A stretch of 6,249 nt of DNA from Escherichia coli. Its GTDB lineage: Bacteria > Pseudomonadota > Gammaproteobacteria > Enterobacterales > Enterobacteriaceae. The position numbers and the translations under genes were made by a program. Shown here one piece after another: positions 1-6,249 of the stretch. Where the stretch lies: assembly GCF_003334785.1 (NCBI RefSeq), contig NZ_QOWV01000039.1. One strand, 5' to 3'. How positions within the stretch are numbered: the stretch's first letter is position 1; each line of letters starts with the position of its first letter. The notes below the pieces were generated by a model. That model ran no database searches. It was not told where the DNA came from and was given only the letters and a program-made list of their open reading frames with translations.

Positions 1-49
1 GAATGGCCCTCCAACCGTGTTGACGAACTCCTGCCATGGAACGTAGTAC

Positions 50-379
50 TCACCAATAAATAAGCGTCAATACGGTGCTCCGTTGACGCTTACAGAGAAT
101 GCGTTTGACCGCCTCGCTATATACTTCCGAGCGTTCTCTTTTCCCAACAGAAATCACGAAAACGACAACTTTCTCGTCTATAACCTGGTATACAAGGCGA
201 TAGCCTGAAGACCGGAGCTTAATCTTGTAACAATCAGGCATACCACGGAGCTTGTTTGCTTCAATCCGGGGTGACTCAAGTACTTCAACCAGCTTCTTTT
301 TCAACTGTTCACGTACCGTCGAGCCCAGCTTTCGCCATTCCTTTAGTGCCCGCTCGTCAAAATCCAGAAAATACGCCAT
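50..379 (-). CDS. relE: RelE mRNA-interferase toxin (RelE/ParE family), 109 aa; first 95 aa match E. coli RelE as recalled, followed by a 14-aa C-terminal extension
   Basis: Translation MAYFLDFDERALKEWRKLGSTV...VYSEAVKRIL is recognisably RelE; start codon shares one base with the relB stop (TGATG); the gene sits directly downstream of relB on the same strand. Confidence 0.9.
   Translation of the reverse strand: MAYFLDFDERALKEWRKLGSTVREQLKKKLVEVLESPRIEANKLRGMPDCYKIKLRSSGYRLVYQVIDEKVVVFVISVGKRERSEVYSEAVKRILCKRQRSTVLTLIYW
53..91 (-). terminator. Stem-loop (9-bp stem 62-70/83-91, inner CGG/CCG pairs) followed on the minus strand by UAUUUAUU; probable terminator or mRNA fold at the relE 3' end
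   Basis: Inverted repeat AAGCGTCAA...TTGACGCTT read directly; U-rich tract follows on the minus strand. The extended relE ORF reads through it. Confidence 0.4.
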
Positions 380-618
380 CAGAGTTCATCCAGCGTCACA
401 CGTACTGGCTTAGGATTACGAAGCCGTTCTTTCACTATCTCCACAAGTTCAGCATCTTCATCACTCAGGAGTGTCTGTTTGAACGGCAAGCGTTCATTGT
501 CAGCGATATACTCGAGCATGAGACGAAGCGCTTCAGAAGGAGTTACACCCATTTTTTCAAGCGCGGCGTAAGAACGCGCTTTAAGTTCATCGTCAATACG
601 CAGGTTAATGCTACCCAT
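379..618 (-). CDS. relB: RelB antitoxin, 79 aa
   Basis: Translation MGSINLRIDDELKARSYA...PKPVRVTLDEL matches RelB as recalled; GAGGTG Shine-Dalgarno about 6 nt upstream of the ATG; overlaps the relE start. Confidence 0.92.
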   Translation of the reverse strand: MGSINLRIDDELKARSYAALEKMGVTPSEALRLMLEYIADNERLPFKQTLLSDEDAELVEIVKERLRNPKPVRVTLDEL

Positions 619-700
619 GTCTTACACCTCTTGTAATTACAAATGTCATTACAAGTATCGCACTACAACATGCTTAGGGCAAGTCACGAAGGAAGTCAGA
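619..700 (-). promoter_or_regulatory. relBE promoter region with relO-type operator (perfect 12-bp palindrome TTGTAATTACAA at 631-642, plus partial repeat to 655)
   Basis: Palindrome read directly, immediately upstream of relB; consistent with RelB/RelE autoregulation at an operator overlapping the promoter. Exact -35/-10 positions not resolved by eye. Confidence 0.6.
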
Positions 701-948
701 AAGTAGTCGTAAGAACGGTGATCACTGTCCGCTTTGTGCCAGGAGCAGCCATTGCTAAGTCCATCCTGTATTGTGCAGGTCAGCTCGTTTTTAAAGAGTC
801 CGGCCATCATCTTACTGGTACAGACACCATATACTTTGTGACGGTCAGGCTACATATGCACAACTCAACTTATTCATCTATTTTTTGCTTTAGCATGTCA
901 GTGTTGCTTTCTCGTCGGCGGGTGAGCGGTGACCTGACCTGTCGATAA
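643..948 (+). CDS. ydfV: Hypothetical protein, 101 aa, in the position and of the size of E. coli ydfV (divergent from relB)
   Basis: ORF of the expected length between relB and flxA; no recognisable Shine-Dalgarno; the start lies inside the relO operator. Protein sequence not independently recognised. Confidence 0.35.
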   Translation: MSLQVSHYNMLRASHEGSQKVVVRTVITVRFVPGAAIAKSILYCAGQLVFKESGHHLTGTDTIYFVTVRLHMHNSTYSSIFCFSMSVLLSRRRVSGDLTCR

Positions 949-1100
949 AGGAACGTAACACGTTTTATGCAACACCCGCATGCGGCAGAAAATTATTGCC
1001 GAACGTTTACCCCTGTCAACAAGCTTTACTTTCTGAGGCGCGCCAGCCCGCGAGGAAAACAATCTGAACATCAAACAATTAATGACACAAGAAATACGAT

Positions 1101-1127
1101 TAAAGATTTTTTTGTGCATGCCGATAG
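1101..1127 (+). promoter_or_regulatory. sigma28 (FliA)-type promoter: TAAAGATT, 11-bp spacer, GCCGATAG
   Basis: Matches the sigma28 consensus TAAAGTTT-N11-GCCGATAA at 7/8 and 7/8 with the exact spacer, about 24 bp upstream of the flxA start; flxA is a known FliA-dependent gene. Confidence 0.6.
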
Positions 1128-1150
1128 TGCTTTTTTAAAAGGAGAAATCT

Positions 1151-1483
1151 ATGTCTGTCACAATTCAGGGAAATACCTCAACCGTTATTTCAAACAACTC
1201 CGCCCCGGAAGGAACATCAGAAATAGCCAAAATCACAAGACAAATTCAGGTGCTGACTGAAAAGCTTGGGAAAATCTCATCGGAAGAGGGGATGACGACA
1301 CAGCAGAAAAAAGAAATGGCTGCATTGGTACAGAAGCAAATTGAAAGCCTCTGGGCTCAACTGGAGCAGTTGTTAAGGCAGCAGGCAGAGAAAAAGAATG
1401 AAGACGCGACAGTTCAGCCTGATAAAAAAGAAGAGAAAAAAGACGATACAAATACCGCTGGCACCATTGATATTTACGTCTAA
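1151..1483 (+). CDS. flxA: FlxA-like protein (FliA-regulated), 110 aa
   Basis: AAGGAG Shine-Dalgarno about 6 nt upstream of the ATG; translation MSVTIQGNTSTVISNNSAPEG... with a Q/E/K-rich coiled-coil-like centre; gene order relB-ydfV-flxA as in the Qin prophage. Confidence 0.85.
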   Translation: MSVTIQGNTSTVISNNSAPEGTSEIAKITRQIQVLTEKLGKISSEEGMTTQQKKEMAALVQKQIESLWAQLEQLLRQQAEKKNEDATVQPDKKEEKKDDTNTAGTIDIYV

Positions 1484-1497
1484 GTGACAGCCGTATT

Positions 1498-1522
1498 GTG
1501 GCCCTCATCGGGCCACTTTTCG
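1498..1522 (+). terminator. Rho-independent terminator downstream of flxA
   Basis: GTGGCCC-tcatc-GGGCCAC hairpin followed by TTTTC, 15 bp after the flxA stop. Confidence 0.6.
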
Positions 1523-1570
1523 CCATCAGCCTTTTCTTTAAAGACATATTATCTTTGTATCATTTCTGAT

Positions 1571-3419
1571 AGTTAACATTACAAGATATAAGTAATGGAC
1601 GCACTCCCAATTAGTCTATTTAAATCGCCACGAGTTTAACTGACAACCCATGATCAATTATGAATTGCAACTATTTCTGTAGTCACTTTTGTGGGGACAG
1701 TCCACAAAACTGCCAACTTCCGCTTCTTGCTCTTAGCGGACATTAGCATAGGCTATTTACCATAACGCCTCATTACGCGCACCGCCCAGACTGACTCAGC
1801 GCGTTTCTGGCATATCCCCGGTAAAACAAGTAACAAACCACCCGAAAATGAACACCAGAAACGCGACTTAAGAATCTACCCTATGAATGGATATGCACTC
1901 AACCGAATCGATCTTGGTTTCAATCTTTTTTATCGGGATCAGGCTTCTTTTTAGGTAACTTCGGGGGCTTAACTTGCTGATGACTTTGCGTTCGGCGCGT
2001 AAGCCAGGGATGGTCAGCTTTAGGTTTAACATAGTATTTTGAGCGTAAATCAATACGGGCATTATCCACTCGTTCATGGACACTCTTTTCATCATCCAGT
2101 GGTATAGGCTCCGGGCCATCAACATACTTTTCCCAGCCCAGCGCTTTCCCGTCATACAGAACGTTAATTTCACCGTCAAAGTTCTCGCATACAGTAACAA
2201 CCGAATGCCTAAGTCGATATCCCCGGCCCTCACTGCGTACCTGAAACGCACTGCTTTTGTACTGGAAAGTGAGATTTTTAGACAGAACGCGCTTCGCCTG
2301 TAGGCTGAAGATATAACCCAGTTCCTCTTCAGAATGGTGCACATCAAGATGAGCATTATCAGTAGTACGAGGCGACGTAGCGAACCGGTTGTTATAGGCT
2401 TCAATAAAGGTCGGCAACCATGCATTTGCTGTTTCAATATCACTGATATTCTGAAGCCGCATTTCTTTGACCAGCCTGTCCTGTAGTGTCTGATTGGCGC
2501 GCTCTACCCGCCCTTTTGCCTGCGGGCTGTTGGCATGGATTGGCTCGATGCCCAGTGTCTTTATCGCACGAGTGAACTGGGTCAGCTCACCTTCCCGCTC
2601 TGGGTTATTTACCCTGAATATACTGTGTCTATCAGAGTAGAGAGCGAGCGGTACGCCATGATCATTAAGGTAACCCCGGAGGGTTTCCATGTAAGCCCGG
2701 GTTGTTTCAGCAGGCACAAAACGCAACGCCATCAACGCACTGGTGGCATCATCAATGAAAACGATCAGTGTACATCTGGGGCCTCGATTTTCAAACCAGT
2801 CATGAGGTGAGCCATCAATCTGGATCAGTTCACCGTAAGATGGTCGTCGCATGCGGCGTTGATATATACGGGCAATTTTACGACGGCGTTCACGCCATAA
2901 CCCCTCTTCTATCATCCACTTTCTGAGAGTTTCAACGGATAAAGATAAACCGTGTATCTCGCGCAATTTTTCGCACGCAAACGTAGGTCCAAAATCAGCG
3001 TAACGGCCTTTGAGGAGTGAAATTACTGTTGCTCTGAATTCAGTAGAAAAGGAATTATTAGGACGCTTTCCACGTCGGTGGGAAACCAGACCAGAAGGCC
3101 CTTCATTTCTATACCGTTGCACCAGACGTTTAACCTGCCGAATAGAAATGCCAATGCGTGCCGCAGCTTGTTCCTGAATAATCTGAAGTCGGTGGAGTTC
3201 CTTATGACTCATCGTAACAGTCTCTTTGATCATGAAAAATCCCCCAGAGAATTGTCTGGGGACATTTTAGAATGGTTCAAAGGGGACATTACAGCTTGGT
3301 GTTAACAATAGCCTGCTTCTCCGTGCCTTTCGGCACGTAAGAGGCTAACCTACATGTGTCTAGCATGAAATTGGCCTCAGATTAATGTTAAGCGTCTTGC
3401 AGGACGCGTAATGTTAACT
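1571..3419 (-). mobile_element. ISNCY-family (IS1202-group-like) insertion sequence; boundaries tentative
   Basis: Boundaries are placed at a perfect 12-bp inverted repeat (AGTTAACATTAC at 1571-1582; GTAATGTTAACT at 3408-3419) bracketing the transposase gene. No target-site duplication was found and a 12-mer match could arise by chance in 6 kb. Confidence 0.35.
1920..3233 (-). CDS. ISNCY-family DDE transposase (IS481/IS1202-like), 437 aa
   Basis: N-terminal helix-turn-helix (AARIGISIRQVKRLVQRY); integrase-type catalytic core with D in IQIDGS, D in FIDDATS and E in SPQAKGRVERANQTL; lysine/proline-rich C-terminal tail. An alternative ATG at 3212 (MSHKEL...) is in frame. Confidence 0.9.
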   Translation of the reverse strand: MIKETVTMSHKELHRLQIIQEQAAARIGISIRQVKRLVQRYRNEGPSGLVSHRRGKRPNNSFSTEFRATVISLLKGRYADFGPTFACEKLREIHGLSLSVETLRKWMIEEGLWRERRRKIARIYQRRMRRPSYGELIQIDGSPHDWFENRGPRCTLIVFIDDATSALMALRFVPAETTRAYMETLRGYLNDHGVPLALYSDRHSIFRVNNPEREGELTQFTRAIKTLGIEPIHANSPQAKGRVERANQTLQDRLVKEMRLQNISDIETANAWLPTFIEAYNNRFATSPRTTDNAHLDVHHSEEELGYIFSLQAKRVLSKNLTFQYKSSAFQVRSEGRGYRLRHSVVTVCENFDGEINVLYDGKALGWEKYVDGPEPIPLDDEKSVHERVDNARIDLRSKYYVKPKADHPWLTRRTQSHQQVKPPKLPKKKPDPDKKD

Positions 3420-3567
3420 GGGGCTTTTCTCTATCTGCCGTTGGTGTCCATGCCCGAGGCAGATAGCCTCAAGCACCCGCAGTCATTCTACTTAACTAAG
3501 ATTTCCCCGCAAACCGTTTTTGTCCAGCACAGTAAATATCCAACTAAACCAATGGAGTTCGCTGTAT

Positions 3568-3747
3568 TTACCGCCAGTATTCAATGCACATGACCGCCAT
3601 GAACACCCCTAAAAAAAGGGCATTTATATATCCAAATATTAATATCAAAACATCAACTTTTTCCATATACCTTGCTGTGAAGATGATGGGCATACATGAT
3701 GCGAACAACCAGAACGCAACAAACAAAAACTGCAATGCGTTTTTCAT
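3568..3747 (-). CDS. Small hydrophobic membrane protein, 59 aa, two predicted transmembrane helices
   Basis: Consensus AGGAGG Shine-Dalgarno 5 nt upstream of the ATG at 3747; translation MKNALQFLFVAFWLFASCMPIIFTARYMEKVDVLILIFGYINALFLGVFMAVMCIEYWR. The ORF-track version (start 3786) has no ribosome-binding site. Confidence 0.45.
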   Translation of the reverse strand: MKNALQFLFVAFWLFASCMPIIFTARYMEKVDVLILIFGYINALFLGVFMAVMCIEYWR

Positions 3748-4001
3748 TATTCCTCCTACAATCAATGTGCAATTACATTTAAACACACCTCAATTTGGCC
3801 GGACATATAAATATCTAAACCAGAAAAAATCACTTACATAGCGTTACAAACTCTTTAGTCTAAAGGTTCATCGTAAAACATTCCCCATACTTATCAGTCC
3901 GTTCCGCGCCAGGTAGCTCATTGCCTTATCTGGCAACCTGTAATCAGGTTTCCGCTTTTTCAGTTGGCTGGTCGTTTAACCGACATAGTTAATCCATTAA
4001 T

Positions 4002-4289
4002 CTAGTTGCCGGATGTTGGTGGATTTTCGCGTTTTAGTTGTTCATAAAAGTGCACAGCTTTAACCAGTTCTTCTGATGTAACTGGGACTGGTGAGGCAGT
4101 GAATAAGGCCTGAATTTGATAGTTCGGCCTGTCGTTACAATCCTCTTTTTTCGGTACATATTTCCAGTCACCAGACCACTACTTCCCCTGAAAGTCCGTA
4201 ACGCCTTTTTTCACGTAGCGATATCGCCATGCCACTGGTTTTGCTTGCCCCGCCGTTTCATGCCCTTCCTGATAATTAATCTCGCTCAT
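4002..4289 (-). pseudogene. Small prophage-like ORF (about 95 codons) interrupted by an in-frame amber codon at 4179-4181
   Basis: Reads MSEINYQEGHETAGQAKPVAWRYRYVKKGVTDFQGK-TAG-WSGDWKYVPKKEDCNDRPNYQIQ...; its ATG overlaps the TGA of the upstream ORF (ATGA). Confidence 0.25.
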
Positions 4290-4477
4290 TCATCGCCCCA
4301 CTCATCACAATATGCTTCGACCGGAGTTTTTCCCGCTTCATAGTCATCACGCTAGGATTCGACATCAGCAGCACTTCCACCGCGTAACTCACCATAGTCC
4401 ATTAATAGTTCATCCCGCTCTTCAAAACTGATGTTATATTTAGCTGAACAAAAATCAGCCACTTTGTTCTTCCTCAT
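4286..4477 (-). pseudogene. Small acidic ORF (about 63 codons) interrupted by an in-frame amber codon at 4352-4354
   Basis: Reads MRKNKVADFCSAKYNISFEERDELLMDYGELRGGSAADVES-TAG-RDDYEAGKTPVEAYCDEWGDE; an internal GTG at codon 6 is preceded by GAGGAAG; stop overlaps the next start. Confidence 0.2.
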
Positions 4478-4899
4478 CGTCTTTTATTTCGTGGTATGAG
4501 TAATTGCAGTAGTTAAAGAAAATTTCTTATGCTCCGTCATGAATTTCCTCAGGTGTTGCGTCATCGTCCACTTCGAATACATCCTCAAAATCTCCACCAG
4601 CTATTCCCGTTTCAATAATAATTTTGAACTTTCGCATTTCACTACCGCCCTTTCGGGCGGCCTCCTGATGTTCTGAGGGTGCAGAAATCCATCCGGTTAA
4701 GGATTAAATTTTATTTACAGAACTGAATTTAATTATTCAGATATACGTATCTGTAGCCTTACGAATCTACTCACTGGATGCCTCTTTCATAAAAATAATC
4801 CAGTGGGTTTTATCGTTTTTTCCCTGTTCGTTGACAGATAACAGGTTTTCTGTCTGTCAGTGCCAGAATCTGGCTTACCGGTATTTGCGTTTCATTCCA

Positions 4900-5256
4900 T
4901 TAAAAAATCAGAACGCCGTGCGGCCTCAACACCCGAAAGGCTTCTTTAAATCTCTGTCGCGAATCATCACGCCAGGCATCTTTATTCAGCCGTCCATATT
5001 TCTTTCCCATCCAGGCGTTATCACCAACACTCTCAAGATGCGGAGGGTCTAATACAACCATCGAAAAAGATGCGTCTGCAAATGATAATGCACGAAAATC
5101 TGCGATAATGTCAGGGCTGATAATCAAGCGTCTCCCATTGCGTAATGTGTATCCTTCTTTTCTGATATCGCTGAATATCGCCCGTTCGTCAGACTTATCG
5201 AACCAGAACATGCGGCTGCCACAGCACATATCAAGAATGGTTGCCGGTGCACTCAC
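4900..5256 (-). CDS. Putative SAM-dependent methyltransferase (motif I ILDMCCGS; motif IV VVLDPPH), 118 aa; probably cut short by a premature TAA
   Basis: GTG start overlapping the stop of the upstream ORF; motif I and a DPPH motif about 55 residues apart, as in small N6-adenine/N4-cytosine-type methyltransferases; after the TAA at 4900-4902 the same frame stays open 29 codons (WNETQIPVSQILALTDRKPVICQRTGKKR). Confidence 0.6.
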   Translation of the reverse strand: MSAPATILDMCCGSRMFWFDKSDERAIFSDIRKEGYTLRNGRRLIISPDIIADFRALSFADASFSMVVLDPPHLESVGDNAWMGKKYGRLNKDAWRDDSRQRFKEAFRVLRPHGVLIF

Positions 5257-5519
5257 TGCGCCACGTCCTGAAAATTACCCTGATAGAAAGCCAGTATGCG
5301 CTGCATAACTTCGCTCTTCCGGCACTCGCGACAGATTATGTTTAGGCGACTGTCGTAGCGACGTATTTCTCCGTCAGGTGATGACCAGATAAGGTCCGGA
5401 TCAACCACAGCAGGTTTCTTCACCTTTGCCCTCGAGAGTTTTTTGCGGGCGTTTTGCCAGTCCTTACGCGCCTGTTCAGAGGGGAATAACCCGTATCCGG
5501 AGCTTAAGTTGCACGCCAT
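5253..5519 (-). CDS. Hypothetical basic protein, 88 aa (contains CRECRK), coupled to the methyltransferase gene
   Basis: Stop overlaps the methyltransferase GTG start (GTGA); no clear Shine-Dalgarno; its 5' end overlaps the longest version of the opposite-strand ORF. Confidence 0.3.
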   Translation of the reverse strand: MACNLSSGYGLFPSEQARKDWQNARKKLSRAKVKKPAVVDPDLIWSSPDGEIRRYDSRLNIICRECRKSEVMQRILAFYQGNFQDVAQ

Positions 5520-5892
5520 TGGGTGGGTTAAGCATAAATGTATTCCTGGTGCTAAATGGCCCGAAATTCAGGCAGAGATGCGCATCTGGAAAAAACGTCG
5601 CGAAGGTGAACGCAAGGAAACCGGAAAATACACGTCTGTTGTTGATCTCGCCCGCGCCAGAGCCAATCAACAGTACACTGAAAATTCAACAGGAAAAATC
5701 AGCCCGGTCATTGCTGCCATTCATCGCGAATACAAGCAGACATGGAAAACACTGGATGACGAACTGGCCTACGCTCTCTGGCCTAGTGATGTGGATGCCG
5801 GAAACATTGACGGCAGCATCCATCGCTGGGCAAAAAAAGAAGTTATCGACAACGACCGCGAAGACTGGAAGCGTGAGGTGTACTGGCAATAG
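5443..5892 (+). CDS. Hypothetical protein of unknown function (149 aa from TTG 5443; alternative starts TTG 5509 with a GGAG site, or ATG 5578)
   Basis: Long open frame with mixed charged composition (…KISPVIAAIHREYKQTWKTLDDELAYALWPSDVDAGNIDGSIHRWAKKEVIDNDREDWKREVYWQ); the 3' end abuts or lies within the IS3-family terminus. Confidence 0.45.
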   Translation: MRAFCQSLRACSEGNNPYPELKLHAIGWVKHKCIPGAKWPEIQAEMRIWKKRREGERKETGKYTSVVDLARARANQQYTENSTGKISPVIAAIHREYKQTWKTLDDELAYALWPSDVDAGNIDGSIHRWAKKEVIDNDREDWKREVYWQ

Positions 5893-6249
5893 CGGACACT
5901 ACCATTTGTTCTTTTTTTAAGCAGCCATCTGATGATATTTTTCCCTGAAGGCTGCCGGGGAGATATTCCCCAGACGAGAGTGACGACGCTGACGATTGTA
6001 GAAAATCTCAATGTATTCCCGTATTACTGAGATGGCTTCATCCCGGTTATTAAAACGATAGTGGCTCAGGCTCTCATTTTTCAGCGTTCCCCAGAAGCTT
6101 TCCATCGGAGCGTTGTCGTAACAGTTACCTTTACGCGACATTGATGTTTTCAGACCAAACTGCTCCTGTATGACCCGGTAATCGTATGCGCAGTACTGTG
6201 AACCTCGATCGGAGTGGTGGATTAGCACGGCAGGTGGGCGCTGGCTCCT
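5874..6249 (-). mobile_element. IS3-family insertion sequence, partial (continues beyond window); terminus near 5874-5900
   Basis: Transposase OrfB C-terminus ends at 5917; the adjacent GGCAATAGCGGACAC (5885-5899) resembles the IS3 terminal repeat as recalled (GCAATAGTGGACAC). Exact terminal base uncertain by about 10 bp. Confidence 0.6.
5917..6249 (-). CDS. IS3-family transposase OrfB (integrase core), C-terminal part; 5' end lies outside the window
   Basis: Translation ...VLIHHSDRGSQYCAYDYR...MSRKGNCYDNAPMESFWGTLKNE...YNRQRRHSRLGNISPAAF carries the IS3-family DDE-region signatures (HSDRGSQY; KGNCYDNAPMESF); the frame stays open to the window edge. Confidence 0.9.
   Translation of the reverse strand, partial: RSQRPPAVLIHHSDRGSQYCAYDYRVIQEQFGLKTSMSRKGNCYDNAPMESFWGTLKNESLSHYRFNNRDEAISVIREYIEIFYNRQRRHSRLGNISPAAFREKYHQMAA

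Follow-up and report, generated by a model that had tools for sequence, protein, structure and literature searches.

Close to the end of an insertion sequence (IS) in a 6,249-nucleotide stretch of Escherichia coli DNA (hereafter the window, meaning the whole stretch analysed) lies a short inverted repeat, and the question raised by this locus is what the repeat is and to which genetic unit it belongs. The left arm (CTATCTGCC, positions 3431-3439) and the right arm (GGCAGATAG, positions 3458-3466) are perfectly complementary, and both were placed correctly in the original prediction of a 9-bp inverted repeat; its 19-nt loop proved to be one nucleotide too long, as the spacer GTTGGTGTCCATGCCCGA (3440-3457) comprises 18 nt and one G had been counted twice. 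The distance from the repeat to the IS end (3307) is 124 nt. As had also been predicted, neither strand has a U-tract after the stem; before the left arm, and extending into it, stands a U-rich run (CTTTTCTCT, 3424-3432, plus strand), which is part of the terminator of the Sok-like antisense RNA described below. In total, the window has four inverted repeats with perfect 9-bp arms and a loop of 3-30 nt, and dinucleotide-preserving shuffling (n = 200) gave a mean of 0.66 such repeats, with at least one in 43.5% of the shuffled windows. The bare repeat is not significant by chance; its significance comes from homology and covariation.

A scan of the whole window against Rfam gave one strong match, RF01794 ("sok antitoxin"), at 3307-3478 on the minus strand, with a score of 104.1 bits against a gathering threshold of 59 (E 1.5e-23) and the full model (1-157) covered. 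The sense strand of this family is that of the hok mRNA: in K-12 the model matches on the hokC/mokC strand, with the annotated sokC on the opposite strand inside the match, and hok-sense matches were likewise obtained at K-12 hokC, hokB, hokE and hokA and at nine hok loci on plasmids. The first helix of its consensus structure consists of both repeat arms and their flanking pairs. A second Rfam match over the repeat, ceN48, for which tRNA- or snoRNA-like readings had been considered, was dismissed as far below threshold (23 bits against 70). The inverted repeat is very probably the hairpin between the tac and ucb elements of a hok-family toxin mRNA leader, present here as a relic disrupted by an IS, and the description of the repeat as an "RNA structural element" was correct, as homology and covariation indicate. 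The hairpin itself is already known biology, namely a standard element of the hok mRNA folding switch that is placed by an existing Rfam model, and its identification prevents the region from being mis-annotated as an unexplained palindrome: positions 3308-3520 hold a type I toxin leader that has been orphaned, together with a gene for an antisense RNA. The parts of the leader are the following (mRNA numbering, nt = 3479 minus the window coordinate):

3308-3478, minus strand: hok-family (hokD-type) leader remnant, from the putative start G3478 to the "AU" of the hok start codon, delimited by RF01794 and by alignment with the intact hokD-type locus of CRE1493 (L001)
3471-3478 (nt 1-8), minus strand: tac element, GGGUGCUU, pairing with ucb in the activated fold or with the 3' fbi in the full-length mRNA of intact homologues
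3458-3466 (nt 13-21), minus strand: 5' arm of the repeat in mRNA sense, CUAUCUGCC, shared with the alternative 5' metastable hairpin
3450-3476 (nt 3-29), minus strand: alternative 5' metastable hairpin, mutually exclusive with the inverted-repeat helix
3431-3439 (nt 40-48), minus strand: 3' arm of the repeat in mRNA sense, GGCAGAUAG
3420-3426 (nt 53-59), minus strand: ucb, the anti-SD box AAGCCCC, pairing with tac or with the SD of the upstream ORF (GAGG, 3375-3378)
3485-3513, minus strand: putative hok promoter, with the -10 box TAGAAT at 3485-3490 and a -35-like TTTGCG/TTGCGG at 3507-3513

The promoter pattern AGTTAAGTAGAAT-N6-GGGTGCTTGAGG is kept in more than 50 homologous loci, and homologues with unrelated upstream flanks share the -10 box and its distance from the 5' GGG, so the hairpin is part of the hok unit rather than of the small ORF at 3568-3786. 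A consensus promoter and terminator scan of positions 3200-3900 returned no promoter-like (sigma-70) site and a single terminator-like site, located inside the IS, and the promoters given here are therefore placed from conservation alone. The hydrophobic ORF at 3568-3786 (minus strand, 59-72 aa), located upstream of the hok promoter, gave no match in NCBIfam or PHROGs and is unannotated in the RefSeq copies. It is conserved in CRE1493, and other sequences take its place at other hok loci.

The covariation analysis was based on 34 distinct 5' domains, taken from the window, prophage contigs, nine plasmids (from Escherichia, Salmonella, Citrobacter, Enterobacter and Cronobacter) and K-12 hokA, hokB, hokC and hokE, and aligned by MAFFT; at the 3' arm, hokE is shifted by one column in this alignment, which makes the pairing percentages slightly conservative. 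Scans of viral contigs for more diverse hok loci yielded three R1-type Hok loci and none of the HokB type, and the diversity of the leaders was supplied by plasmid BLAST matches and the K-12 paralogs. Across the 34 leaders, 98.7% of the cells of the repeat helix are paired, and both sides have changed in four of nine pairs (A-U to G-C or U-A, and C-G to U-A, for example). The full tac-hairpin-ucb stem is paired in 96.9% of the cells and includes five pairs with both-side changes, while partners slid by one to three columns gave 37-58% and none of 500 shuffles reached the observed values. The alternative hairpin (nt 3-29), paired in 94.4% of the cells, shows compensatory changes in four of its 11 pairs.

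A chance repeat without function would be in line with the frequency of such repeats in shuffled windows. This explanation has already been refuted by the covariation and is left with a practically negligible probability: the arms, for which conservation in homologous loci had been proposed as a check, are kept and covary in 34 hok leaders from chromosomes, prophages and plasmids, and they lie inside a 104-bit Rfam match.

The direction of the signal was assessed by comparing the two strands. For the repeat helix, 98.7% of the cells are paired in the sense direction and 91.8% in the antisense direction, and for the alternative hairpin the corresponding values are 94.4% and 71.7%. G-U wobbles occur in 23 cells of the repeat helix, in 16 of the 34 sequences; since these variants would be C-A on the other strand, both helices are RNA structures of the minus-strand transcript and not a DNA palindrome. 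The original prediction had also considered a protein-binding site, and a palindromic operator for a dimeric protein (a phage or toxin-antitoxin regulator, or the IS transposase) would fit a symmetrical sequence close to a promoter region and to an IS end. It is nevertheless highly improbable, as the wobble variants break the DNA symmetry and their covariation works solely in the minus-strand RNA, spacer lengths in homologues range from 6 to 35 nt, loci that lack the IS also have the hairpin, and the repeat lies downstream of the putative transcription start, inside the transcript.

The strand comparison and the flanks also bear on a terminator or other 3' structure of the ORF at 3568-3786, whose stop codon lies about 100 nt upstream of the repeat on the same strand, and on a plus-strand read-through structure, since the repeat stands on that strand immediately behind the U-rich tail of the Sok-like RNA. 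The stem has no following U-tract on either strand, the terminator scan found nothing at the repeat, and the wobble variants lose their pairing on the plus strand. Homologous hairpins sit behind unrelated upstream sequences at other loci, so that the earlier assignment of the repeat to the region downstream of a small membrane gene was not upheld, and these alternatives together are very improbable.

The hairpin of the hok leader acquires its role from the folding switch that has been described for plasmid R1. In R1 hok/sok the full-length mRNA is silent, with tac paired to the 3' fbi and ucb sequestering the SD of mok; 3' trimming leads to a tac-ucb "tac-stem" in which the SD and the Sok target are opened, and the nascent RNA is kept inactive by a metastable 5' hairpin (PMC9841398). 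For a full-length intact homologue (421 nt), the predicted fold pairs nt 1-12 with CCUCAACGCACCC at the 3' end, with the repeat hairpin stacked above and GCCC(C) paired with GAGGC of the SD. The 3'-truncated form (374 nt) is predicted to form the tac-ucb stem around the repeat hairpin, and its SD region refolds. Both predicted folds reproduce the R1 scheme. Structure prediction for the window, which had been proposed as a check on the repeat, gave a divided result: the isolated 59-nt domain pairs the arms and folds into the tac-stem (nt 1-8 with nt 53-59, -26.8 kcal/mol), whereas the 172-nt and 260-nt remnants favour the competing hairpin. The minimum free energy fold of the 172-nt leader is the metastable hairpin conformer at -64.5 kcal/mol, compared with -63.2 kcal/mol for the tac-stem conformer (a gap of 1.3 kcal/mol), and the predicted probability of the repeat helix is 0.15 in the 172-nt remnant and 0.02 in the 260-nt remnant. 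With the ensemble tilted towards the competing hairpin, pairing of the repeat may be rare in the relic.

In intact hok loci, the repeat hairpin would thus serve as a constant scaffold upon which either the fbi-tac or the tac-ucb helix stacks. In the full-length mRNA, tac would pair with the 3' fbi while ucb sequesters the SD of the upstream ORF, leaving the message silent; after 3' trimming, tac would pair with ucb at the base of the hairpin, and the SD and the Sok target would be freed. During synthesis, the 5' arm would be captured by the metastable hairpin, by which premature activation would be prevented. Transcription, processing and regulatory roles are inferred here from the R1 hok/sok literature. 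In the window, the switch is a relic of which only the promoter, the leader, a truncated upstream ORF of 25 codons and an antisense Sok-like gene are left.

Compared with R1, the window shows the same 5' order of tac, hairpin, ucb, SD and Sok target, an equivalent alternative 5' hairpin and, on the antisense strand, a putative Sok-like gene that overlaps the upstream start. It differs in its location in a chromosomal cryptic prophage, in its loop of 18 nt (34-35 nt in L092 and L093, two R1-like loci on plasmids), and in its upstream ORF in frame with hok, with the toxin ORF and fbi removed by the IS. The 5' domain is nearly identical to that of K-12 hokC/mokC/sokC (gef), whose arms are CUGUCUGUC and GGCAGAUAG and which, unlike the window, has retained its toxin ORF. 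Outside this sequence family, and in another phylum, aapA3/IsoA3 is a system unrelated to hok in sequence. In this Helicobacter pylori system, a type I toxin mRNA is silenced by metastable co-transcriptional hairpins together with 5'-3' pairing (PMC9841398).

The disruption itself was located by alignment with the intact hokD-type locus of CRE1493, which is collinear with the window from upstream of the promoter to "GGCTAT". Beyond this point the window continues as the IS end (TGTTAACACC...) and CRE1493 as "G AAG CAG..." of hok, which places the IS end (3307) behind the "AT" of the hok start codon, two bases inside it. Demonstrated at this locus are the homology and the covariation of both helices, together with the predicted folds and the IS disruption. 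The Hok/Gef toxin ORF (about 50 aa) that would lie directly 3' of the leader is absent, the HokD ORF being 3.27 kb away in related genomes, and the window also lacks the 3' fbi complementary to tac, which is found as CCUCAACGCACCC downstream of hok in CRE1493 and downstream of K-12 hokD. The coupling of mok and hok has been lost: the start codon of the mok equivalent is kept, and its frame runs into the IS. The features on the two sides of the junction, together with the genes behind it, are as follows:

3289-3366, minus strand: truncated upstream (mok-equivalent) ORF, with AUG at 3366-3364, 25 codons and UAA at 3291-3289 inside the IS, aligned with K-12 mokC
3308-3323, minus strand: left copy of the 16-bp target duplication, AGGAGAAGCAGGCTAT, with the first base A changed to C in the window allele
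3282-3307, minus strand: terminal inverted repeat (IRL) of the ISNCY element, TGTTAACACCAAGCTGTAATGTCCCC, cutting the hok start codon
1923-3233 (also delimited as 1920-3233), minus strand: ISNCY-family transposase of 437 aa (NF033594, 456 bits against a cutoff of 250)
1151-1483, plus strand: flxA
643-948, plus strand: ydfV
379-618, minus strand: relB
92-379, minus strand: relE

The transposase ORF is open and 92% identical to a 446-aa plasmid copy, from which it differs by an in-frame deletion of 9 aa (SLNRHITQE) in the N-terminal region; RefSeq annotates the transposase DNA as a pseudogene and as "ydfW". The start of the upstream ORF and the Sok target (3353-3366, corresponding to about 530-560 in L005-L084) form a mosaic of sharply different alleles in leaders that are otherwise near-identical and of hokD type, and that encode identical HokD proteins; this mosaic may reflect a diversifying Sok specificity.

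Where the missing toxin half has gone is indicated by strains that carry the same DNA without the IS66 element found at the left edge of the window. In these strains (e.g. FORC 064, L004), the HokD ORF lies just beyond relE, and AGGAGAAGCAGGCTAT flanks the intervening DNA on both sides, once at the IS end (with C as first base in the window allele) and once directly before the hokD ATG. Between the copies lie 3273 bp, or 3300 bp in alleles without the 27-nt in-frame transposase deletion, and the intact locus contains a single copy. The far end of the unit reads GGTGACACTTCTGCTTTGCGTTGACA, and by eye 19 of 26 positions match the reverse complement of the left end. This flanking duplication and the match between the ends argue for the insertion of a passenger-carrying ISNCY unit into a hok leader with a 16-bp duplication, and its insertion in the hokD leader explains both the relBE-hokD operon of K-12 and the missing hokD leader. 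relBE, ydfV, flxA and the transposase make up one unit (93-3323 in the window, 1427-4731 in L004) with imperfect terminal inverted repeats. For the plain IS, similarity among copies stops near window position 1714, and no convincing right inverted repeat was found there; GGGGACAGTCCACAAAACTGCCAAC at 1699-1724, located where the similarity to the other IS copies ends (about 1714), resembles the right-end motif GGGGACATTACAGCTTGGTGTTAACA of the IS in direct instead of inverted orientation.

K-12 hokD (relF, the third gene of relBEF) relates to the window in a corresponding manner. The protein encoded by intact relatives of the leader is 100% identical to HokD, and in FORC 064-type strains the HokD ORF lies 3.27 kb from the leader, across the inserted unit. 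K-12 hokD differs in being located directly downstream of relE with just 16 nt of homology to the hok leader, its own leader having been lost. Separation of the leader by a passenger-carrying IS would explain why K-12 HokD is without its own regulatory region. An integration of relBE into hokD has been noted before (PMC6379469); in the literature found, the IS ends, the 16-bp duplication and the surviving leader were not mentioned, and the terms "sokD" and "mokD" occurred in none of the papers listed.

The position of the IS end within a hok start codon is not restricted to the window. Exact matches to the left end of the IS were examined in a collection with one genome per species and in viral contigs, and the left end was found within 0-4 nt of the hok start codon in the leaders of four different hok paralogs, with the following sequence directly before the IS:

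Qin type: ...GGCTAT
hok of IncHI plasmids: ...GCCATG
Kluyvera hok: ...CGCTATG
fourth type: ...GCTATGATG

Three further left junctions lie outside hok, and in an unbiased scan of the genome collection hok accounted for three of the five left junctions. The observation on the IS left end and hok covers 3282-3307 in the window and the stretch of L004 equivalent to window positions 35-3307, as well as L101, L105, L106 and L135. Target duplications were not found in the examined flanks of the IS copies L101, L102, L103, L105, L106, L109 and L135. A 5.5-kb contig labelled as a Collinsella MAG (L104, JAIJJM010000167.1) contains the E. coli Qin junction between IS and hok leader, and the 200 nt upstream of its IS end are identical to the window; this contig is probably a binning contaminant.

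These junctions suggest that the ISNCY element has a target preference for the translation-start regions of hok genes, a preference that was not found described in the literature on the IS1202 family. In this family, the ISTde1 subgroup (formerly ISNCY) is described as having TGT ends, direct repeats of 15-17 bp and passenger genes; the element in the window has TGT at both ends, a 16-bp repeat and passengers, and is likened to this subgroup by these described features, with NCBIfam naming it "ISNCY family". We lean slightly towards a combined reading, in which ISNCY prefers hok starts, its 3.27-kb form with relBE, ydfV and flxA split hokD and thereby made relBEF, and the window holds the other half of hokD. 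According to this scenario, the 3.27-kb insertion with its 16-bp duplication would have cut hokD off from the promoter, leader and Sok that belonged to it, and the previously unlocated other half would be the window's leader with its Sok-like gene. Should the IS indeed target the start codons of hok genes, a mobile element would be at work whose specific effect is to disarm one toxin family, of relevance to toxin-antitoxin turnover and to IS target choice, and this apparent preference is a more notable by-product of the analysis than the hairpin.

On the strand opposite to the leader, alignment with K-12 sokC, sokB and sokE placed an antisense gene and its promoter:

3358-3434 (ends approximate), plus strand: Sok-like antisense RNA gene
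3323-3351, plus strand: putative Sok promoter, with the -35 box GTGCCT at 3323-3328 and the -10 box TAACCT at 3346-3351

In the predicted fold of the RNA (-30.5 kcal/mol, z -4.17), a long hairpin (3373-3425) stands between a 5' tail and a U-rich tail, and the 3' end of the RNA falls within the arm at 3431-3439. The annotated K-12 sokC maps onto 3358-3434; the hairpin of the window differs by an insert of 18-20 alignment columns, giving a predicted length of 77 nt against 59. The -35 box is GTGCCT in the window (T to G), compared with TTGCCT in nearly all intact relatives, and this mutation, as read from the sequence, is one sign of decay.

Whether the relic is still active was considered in this light. 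The orphan leader and the Sok-like RNA could act as an anti-addiction or decoy module against incoming hokD-type loci on prophages or plasmids, with the hairpin still shaping a stable non-coding transcript; the sequences of promoter, leader and Sok-like gene are intact, and 784 of 5426 finished E. coli genomes carry the junction between IS and leader (90-nt probe, complete). On the other hand, the Sok -35 box is weakened, and the wide distribution is explicable by descent with the Qin-type prophage, so we regard an active relic as unlikely. As the remnant is identical across many genomes, its conservation is uninformative on selection acting on the relic. K-12 MG1655 has lost the leader (0 matches).

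The window as a whole derives from a Qin-type cryptic prophage of E. coli, and many sequenced strains match its positions 93-6249 at 100.0% reported identity. The sequence common to E. coli ends precisely at the relE stop codon, where TGA becomes TGT, and positions 1-92 match the end of an IS66-family (ISEc23-like) element; at this junction the RelE ORF is extended by 14 codons, to 109 aa compared with 95. At the right edge, 5917-6249 (minus strand) encodes a C-terminal fragment of an IS3-family (IS600-like) transposase, and a gene for a class I SAM-dependent methyltransferase is found at 4900-5256 among frameshifted prophage genes.
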